This document shows positions 13,076 through 13,630 of a stretch of 22,187 nt of DNA, piece by piece. The translations under genes and the position numbers were made by a program. Source of the DNA: Escherichia coli (GTDB taxonomy: Bacteria; Pseudomonadota; Gammaproteobacteria; Enterobacterales; Enterobacteriaceae); NCBI RefSeq assembly GCF_003334255.1, contig NZ_QOWU01000067.1; one strand, written 5' to 3'. Each line of letters opens with the position of its first letter. Position 1 is the first letter of the stretch. The notes below the pieces were generated by a model. That model was not told the origin of the DNA and did no database searches. It worked only from the letters and a program-made list of their open reading frames with translations.

Positions 13076-13630
13076 TTATTGATACTGAACCTTGAAGGTC
13101 GCATCCGCATTAGCAGCACCCGGGGTTGCCTCGCCGATTGCATAATAACGCGCCTGGAACGGAATGGTGTTGGTACCGTTATTCAGGGTTGTTTGTGCAC
13201 TAAATGTCGCACCGTCCAGCGTCAGCTCATTTCCTGTTCTGTCCAGTATCTGCACACCAACATTTGTTGCGCTACCCGCAGCTGAACTCTGCAGAGCCAG
13301 TACTTTAGGATGAGCACTGTCAATCGCAGTCCCCAAGAAGGCAACAGCTGCTTTTGTGGCAACACTGGTATCGCAATCATTCAGCTGAATGTTAAAACCG
13401 ACAGCAGAGCTGGTTGCTCCAGTCTGCTTCAGACTAGCGGTACGAACCTGGCCCAACTGAACGGTTTGATCAACAGAGCCTGCATCAACTGCGCAAGCGG
13501 CGTTAACAACTTCCCCTTTAAAGTGAACGGTCCCACCATTTACCGTCGTGGGTGTAGTTTCAGCCAGAGCCGCTGTAGAACTCAGGGACAGAGCCGACAG
13601 AACAACAATTGCCAGAGTTTTAATTTTCAT
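13076..13630 (-). CDS. fimA: Type 1 fimbrial major subunit FimA (184 aa)
   Basis: [23 protein letters not shown] signal peptide and conserved C-terminus ...[18 protein letters not shown] at 13630; immediately downstream (minus strand) of fimS. Confidence 0.95.

Follow-up and report, generated by a model that had tools for sequence, protein, structure and literature searches.

Widespread natural alleles of fimA and fimH that differ from the K-12 reference in an intact type 1 fimbrial locus of Escherichia coli

Introduction

In type 1 fimbriae of Escherichia coli, the major subunit FimA polymerises by donor-strand exchange into a helical pilus rod, and the adhesin FimH binds mannosylated receptors with an affinity that is tuned allosterically by substitutions outside the binding pocket. 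Structures are available for FimA from K-12 (MG1655/BW25113; PDB 2JTY, 5OH0, 6C53) as well as for a long form of the protein that carries two extra residues at its N-terminus (PDB 9iug). Two extra N-terminal residues are also present in FimA from the uropathogenic (UPEC) strain UTI89, which differs from the K-12 protein at 16 residues (Spaulding et al., 2018; PMC5798934). In the same study FimA was found to be far more variable than FimC or FimH, with every non-conserved FimA residue residing on the exterior of the rod. Codons N64, A109, T117, S120, and F138 were reported to be under positive selection, and E45, E121, and A142 to be highly variable positions (PMC5798934).

With regard to FimH, published types comprise fimH27 for MG1655 (K-12), fimH18 for UTI89 and fimH10 for CFT073. 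Type fimH54 has been assigned to strain S88 (PMC6337857), to the O45:H7 clade (PMC8788324) and to strain E24377A (PMC12928451). Position 27 of the mature adhesin has been discussed as pathoadaptive. According to citing papers, the exchange V27A was proposed to be pathoadaptive in adherent-invasive E. coli (AIEC) from paediatric Crohn's disease, and A27V is termed a pathoadaptive change in the title of Hommais 2003 as cited in Dreux et al. (2013). In the latter work a pathoadaptive role of V27A was argued to be unlikely.

Here, we analyze a stretch of 22,187 nucleotides of E. coli DNA (contig NZ_QOWU01000067.1 of assembly GCF_003334255.1), referred to as the window in the following, for which an earlier note, prepared from the letters of the DNA, had suggested that fimA and fimH are non-K-12 alleles.

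Materials and Methods

The fim region of MG1655 served as the K-12 reference for gene-by-gene alignment. The states of codons 27 and 119 of mature FimH were counted with exact 61-mers centred on the respective codon in 5426 complete genomes, a clinically biased set; exact matches are lost to nearby synonymous variants and the counts are hence lower bounds only, not full allele frequencies. The fimH type was set by transitivity, i.e., by identity to the typed strains S88 and E24377A, the FimTyper reference being an internal fragment of 489 nt. For the mannose pocket and the tyrosine gate of FimH we relied on the residues known from structural work, namely F1, N46, D47, Y48, I52, D54, Q133, N135, Y137, D140, and F142.

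Results

Organization of the Locus

In the window, the E. coli type 1 fimbrial locus is intact and consists of fimB, fimE, the invertible element fimS and the genes fimAICDFGH (Table 1). It is embedded in the order yjhR-nanSMC-fimB-fimE-fimS-fimAICDFGH-gntP-uxuABR-yjiC, an arrangement that is standard for the E. coli chromosome; the fim genes are encoded on the minus strand. Immediately downstream of fimS, fimA is the first gene and is followed on the same strand by fimI, fimC, fimD, fimF, fimG, and fimH in an order that is colinear with MG1655. FimB, FimE, and FimI share 100% of their amino acids with the MG1655 proteins, and identity amounts to 98.5–99.4% for FimC, FimD, FimF, and FimG. A scan of the whole window with Rfam at gathering thresholds and a tRNA scan revealed no RNA features, so that no hidden RNA explains the findings reported below.

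Table 1. Positions of the fim genes, of the switch element and of informative codons in the window.
Feature	Position	Strand	Description
fimB	15184..15786	-	switch recombinase; protein identical to MG1655
fimE	14111..14707	-	switch recombinase; protein identical to MG1655
fimS	13750..14063		invertible promoter element; 314 bp; 9-bp inverted repeats TTGGGGCCA / TGGCCCCAA
fimA	13076..13630	-	major subunit of type 1 fimbriae; 184-aa precursor, 161-aa mature protein; = WP_000695589.1
fimA, variable part (mature-coding)	13130..13561	-	every amino acid difference from K-12 falls here
fimI	12472..13011	-	remaining pilus gene; 100% amino acid identity to K-12
fimC	11710..12435	-	remaining pilus gene
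fimD	9007..11643	-	remaining pilus gene
fimF	8467..8997	-	remaining pilus gene
fimG	7951..8394 or 8454	-	remaining pilus gene
fimH	7029..7931	-	mannose-specific tip adhesin; 300-aa precursor; predicted type fimH54; = WP_001338195.1
Ala27 codon, mature FimH	7788..7790	-	GCC; K-12 has GTC (Val)
Val119 codon, mature FimH	7512..7514	-	GTG; Ala in K-12, UTI89, and CFT073; minority state

Mechanical calling of open reading frames starts fimH three codons early (7932–7940; MIV-MKRV, a start also used in the old CFT073 annotation) and lengthens fimI upstream into the 3' end of fimA (13012–13143); RefSeq uses the shorter start in both cases. The spacer between fimH and gntP (6857–7028) differs from that of MG1655 by a replacement/indel comprising about 16 nt in the window vs. 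about 85 nt in K-12, with 82 of 242 alignment columns differing. The K-12 segment may be a repetitive extragenic element.

As assembled, fimS is oriented as in the records of MG1655 and ATCC 11775, the window being colinear with them through the segment. The best sigma-70 match within the element (TTGAGA-18-TATGAT, 10/12) resides on the plus strand at 14015–14044. Since it points away from fimA, fimS is probably in phase OFF as assembled, provided that the fimA promoter hexamers are those that we presume. A search of the literature for an explicit statement on the fimS orientation of the MG1655 reference did not retrieve any.

fimA Is a Long-Form Allele Shared With the Type Strain

The fimA reading frame translates into a FimA that holds all the motifs quoted in the earlier note. 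It scores 186.8 bits against the FimA equivalog model NF011741.1 of NCBIfam (cut-off 140), with the next families (BcfA, FimI, and others) staying below their own cut-offs. Among structures, the 9iug chain is matched with E = 1.3e-96 and 158 of 161 identical residues, and the chains of 6y7s, 2jty, and the 5oh0 group with E ≤ 1e-85. The protein starts with a Sec signal peptide of 23 residues that is identical to the K-12 leader, and the disulfide-forming pair is present as Cys23 and Cys63 of the mature protein, corresponding to Cys21 and Cys61 in K-12 numbering. That a near-identical chain has been solved in 9iug, an entry with 21 chains, suggests that the FimA encoded here is likewise able to assemble into a rod.

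The allele is of the long form, as is the 9iug protein, and its mature product starts with ETTP. Over its full length of 555 nt it is identical, base for base, to fimA of the E. coli type strain ATCC 11775 and of strain S88, as are the encoded proteins (Q9F0S2_ECOLX). Among 4727 complete E. coli genomes with fimA, 354 carry a gene with at least 99% nucleotide identity and 626 one with at least 95%; in the same search K-12 derivatives appear at about 89.6%. The exact protein is found on at least 1000 public contigs, where it is named FimA. FimA from UTI89, equally of the long form, is identical to the window protein at 175 of 184 residues, the nine substitutions being D24E, T66S, A70T, T89S, T106A, E146Q, F163Y, T165I, and A167E in precursor numbering, while the value for CFT073 is 165 of 184.

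Outside of fimA and with the IS1 ends (see below) excluded, 10 substitutions and one single-base indel separate the window from ATCC 11775, among them changes that exchange one amino acid each in FimI and FimD. Difference sites are located at 12682 and 13000 in fimI and at 9253 and 11267 in fimD, and it is FimI of the window that equals the K-12 protein. Several other genomes are only about one mismatch away from the window when the IS1 ends are likewise disregarded.

Divergence From K-12 Is Concentrated in the Mature-Coding Part of fimA

Compared with FimA from MG1655, the window protein agrees in fold family, signal peptide, cysteine pair, the 17 C-terminal residues and operon position. It differs by 17 substitutions and by an insertion of two residues at the mature N-terminus (ETTP... 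vs. AA...), so that 165 of 184 residues (89.7%) and about 89% of the nucleotides are identical. In K-12 numbering, the substitutions are A1T, A2P, A43K, E45T, N64S, S67T, A80S, G81A, T83P, N84K, A109N, A110E, S120A, E121Q, F138Y, T140I, and A142E. All changes are confined to the part between the leader and the conserved C-terminus, in agreement with the earlier note, which had described both ends of FimA as canonical and the mature region as variable. At the DNA level, too, divergence is limited to the mature-coding part, and the final nucleotide difference from K-12 within the coding sequence occurs at position 13130 of the window.

In pairwise alignment with MG1655, 60 of 549 columns (10.9%) differ for fimA. 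The corresponding values for fimB, fimE, fimI, fimC, fimD, fimF, fimG, and fimH range from 0.3 to 2.1% in the same alignment, and the excess found for fimA is therefore not due to chance. The spacer of 64 nt between fimA and fimI (13012–13075), which directly adjoins fimA and thus the gene with the highest divergence in the locus, does not contain a single difference from MG1655. In MG1655, the small RNA fimR2 is annotated in this spacer; an Rfam match was not obtained anywhere in the window.

According to Nei-Gojobori estimates against K-12, fimA exhibits a dS of 0.246 and a dN of 0.064, compared with a dS of 0.015–0.07 and a dN of at most 0.0064 in the remaining fim genes. Synonymous and nonsynonymous changes are thus both raised, and the overall dN/dS is 0.26. 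A pairwise ratio of this kind does not by itself demonstrate positive selection, and any claim about specific sites is that of the literature. As judged from the alignments, the pattern points to old, divergent allele lineages set by recombination into a conserved operon rather than to a burst of amino acid replacements. FimA from the window is substituted at four of the five codons reported to be positively selected (N64S, A109N, S120A, F138Y) and also at the highly variable positions E45, E121, and A142. The divergence matches the known diversification of the outer surface of the pilus rod, with the exposure of the 17 substituted residues being taken from the literature, and the earlier suggestion that the variation reflects the hypervariability of FimA fits well with what has been documented (PMC5798934).

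fimH Probably Corresponds to Type fimH54

FimH from the window matches PDB 5mts with E = 2.5e-195 over residues 1–300, its gene occupies the last position of the fim operon, and all matching genes are annotated as fimH in RefSeq; a profile search against the NCBIfam HMMs at 1e-10 did not yield a match. The protein shares 296 of 300 residues with FimH from MG1655 and the gene 889 of 903 nucleotides. Of the four amino acid changes, two affect the leader (T6N, V10I) and two the lectin domain (V27A, A119V), so that the mature protein differs from that of K-12 only at the latter two positions; the remaining 10 nucleotide exchanges are silent. For neither gene was the alignment with K-12 one of identity, and the view that both are non-K-12 alleles is confirmed. 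For fimH the deviation is mild: with 14 differing nucleotides (98.4% identity), the gene is nearer to K-12 than to the UPEC strains UTI89 (23 differences, 97.5%) or CFT073 (25 differences, 97.2%).

Among the matches listed, 32 complete genomes, including ATCC 11775, S88, and MS7163, carry a fimH that is identical at all 903 nucleotides, and the identical gene is found in isolates from pig, duck, chicken, cattle, river water, and human. The exact protein (B7MML0_ECO45) is present on at least 1000 public contigs under the name FimH. Compared with fimH from E24377A, the window gene shows two differences, one at nt 28 (I-11V, leader) and one at nt 881 (G273A, pilin domain), and none from nt 29 to nt 880; both fall outside any central typing fragment. 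Because the gene equals that of S88 and differs at only two sites from that of E24377A, and because both of these strains are typed as fimH54, the comparisons point to fimH54 as the type of the window gene, an assignment made by identity to typed strains. A literature search combining "ATCC 11775" and "fimH27" did not retrieve anything.

As in fimH27 (K-12), fimH18 (UTI89), and fimH10 (CFT073), the product is a mannose-specific adhesin with an unchanged binding pocket: all 11 pocket and tyrosine-gate residues that were checked are present. Asn70 and Ser78 are shared with K-12, while UTI89 and CFT073 have S70/N78, the combination of the B2 clade of Dreux et al. (2013). The window protein is the same as "Variant 12" in Table 1 of that study (strains LF28, 6011, and 7022; T6N, V10I, V27A, A119V), which was placed in the consensus N70/S78 clade.

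Positions 27 and 119 of FimH

The motif NLAPAVNVGQ with Ala27 is present in the window protein, just as the earlier note had read it, and UTI89 and CFT073 have the same residue at this position. When complete genomes were queried, the Ala27 61-mer from the window matched 1408 of them exactly and 4859 at any identity; the Val27 61-mer from K-12 gave 833 and 2984, respectively. As these two queries differ solely at their central base, the 1875 genomes matched by the Ala27 query only cannot have the Val27 base. In total, Val27 is excluded for at least 3283 of 4859 fimH-bearing complete genomes (68%), whereas at least 17% possess it. Ala27 is the consensus of the species majority, and Val27 is derived and makes K-12 the outlier. 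The earlier note had described position 27 as polymorphic and pathoadaptive; the site is indeed a well-studied polymorphic one, but Ala27 is neither unusual nor pathoadaptive.

Both leader changes of FimH and A119V had been omitted from that note. Val119 is found in the window protein only when compared with FimH from K-12, UTI89, and CFT073. The Val119 61-mer matched 528 genomes exactly and 4789 at any identity, compared with 3060 and 4790 for the Ala119 61-mer from K-12, such that Val119 is a minority state present in at least 11% of the genomes, with Ala119 accounting for at least 64%. It is A119V and not Ala27 that constitutes the informative lectin-domain feature of the allele, being the sole departure of this domain from consensus FimH. 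Published functional data on A119V are modest: GP2 was bound more strongly by a variant with this exchange than by the one used for comparison, and an association of the exchange with adhesive isolates was noted (PMC8904060); FimH from LF28, i.e., the window protein, behaved like K-12 FimH in colonisation of CEABAC10 mice (PMC3554634).

Discussion

In our view, the window holds an intact type 1 fimbrial locus, the fimA and fimH genes of which are ordinary, widespread natural alleles that differ from the K-12 reference (probability about 0.95). Both are already known, common and catalogued. The outer surface of FimA, which is exposed to the host, diversifies, with lumen and subunit interfaces being conserved. 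Old fimA allele lineages would be maintained and shuffled by recombination, leaving a block of about 11% divergence in the mature-coding region next to neighbours that are 98–100% identical. Immune-driven, diversifying or frequency-dependent selection may be the underlying cause. FimH, predicted to be of type fimH54, consists of the species consensus lectin domain (Ala27, Asn70, Ser78) plus A119V and the two leader changes; with the mannose pocket unchanged, the effect of A119V would be at most modulatory.

The window looks like a draft short-read contig that ends in 77-nt IS1 overlaps, and one might suspect that sequencing or assembly errors, or a misremembered K-12 sequence, only simulate differences in genes that are really K-12-like. 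The chance that this is so is negligible: both reading frames are intact, and K-12-like genes are refuted by the alignment with MG1655, which displays the differences, and by the occurrence of the same fimA and fimH, base for base, in many independent complete genomes. An import of the fimA block from another species would be in line with a dS of 0.25 relative to K-12, far above the local background. On the basis of E. coli sequences, we regard it as very unlikely, as the allele family is abundant within the species, as UTI89 has an allele that is 95.5% identical and extended in the same way at the N-terminus, and as Spaulding et al. (PMC5798934), working with E. coli FimA sequences, treat the variation as intraspecific.

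For FimH, the literature on position 27 and the stronger GP2 binding of an A119V variant could be read as indicating a recent pathoadaptive variant in which Ala27 is adaptive and marks uropathogenic or adherent-invasive strains. We consider this very unlikely in view of Ala27 being the consensus state, the argument of Dreux et al. (2013) against a pathoadaptive V27A, the range of animal, environmental, and human isolates with the identical gene, and the K-12-like behaviour of LF28 FimH in mice. In addition, the occurrence of the allele in the ST95 strain S88 and, in near-identical form, in the B1 ETEC strain E24377A shows it to be old and widespread. Given that it is K-12 that is atypical at position 27, "different from K-12" must not be equated with "pathoadaptive."

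Ordinary alleles of this kind have little importance beyond strain typing, where fimH54 in combination with fimA of the ATCC 11775/S88 type is useful for clonotyping. Knowledge of the alleles also guides the choice of references in FimA serology and in work on FimH antagonists and vaccines. As the mannose pocket has not changed, mannoside inhibitors designed on FimH from K-12 or J96 should still fit.

The region adjoining leuX is a hot spot of recombination. In S88, the haplotype of the window is present with 99.9% identity, and near-identical versions occur in isolates from many hosts and sources. Relative to UTI89, on the other hand, the stretch from fimB to uxuR (1460–15786) is diverged by 2–4% as a whole and by 1.2–4.5% per gene; nanC is an exception with 0.4%. 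Since S88 and UTI89 both belong to ST95 according to the literature, the difference implies that recombination has replaced a large segment, the fim-uxu region, within this sequence type. An edge of the haplotype was sought by comparing NCTC9008 with ATCC 11775 over 50 kb; the two were 99.92% identical throughout and no boundary emerged.

Positions 1–77 and 22111–22187 of the window are IS1 termini of 77 nt each in direct orientation, both 100% identical to IS1 from C600, which suggests a contig from short reads that terminates at both ends in a repeat, with an overlap of 77 nt. IS1 is inserted in ytiD and in a small open reading frame upstream of yjhR. A composite-transposon-like or recombination cassette, in which IS1 moves the 22-kb yjhR-nan-fim-gntP-uxu segment and with it the FimA/FimH haplotype between lineages, would help to explain why the same haplotype is found in S88 and in varied isolates and yet diverges from UTI89. 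Such a cassette is highly improbable; a far likelier explanation is ordinary homologous recombination at the fim hot spot together with two insertions of IS1 that are independent and specific to the strain. No complete E. coli genome matched the exact IS1 junction at either window end in a single piece with 100% identity. Several complete genomes have a copy of IS1 no more than a few hundred bases away from the junction at the left end, in ytiD. In other strains, IS1 disrupts fimE (C600) or nanM (TUM12357), and in E24377A it adjoins a truncated fimD, with fimB to fimC being absent from the annotation.
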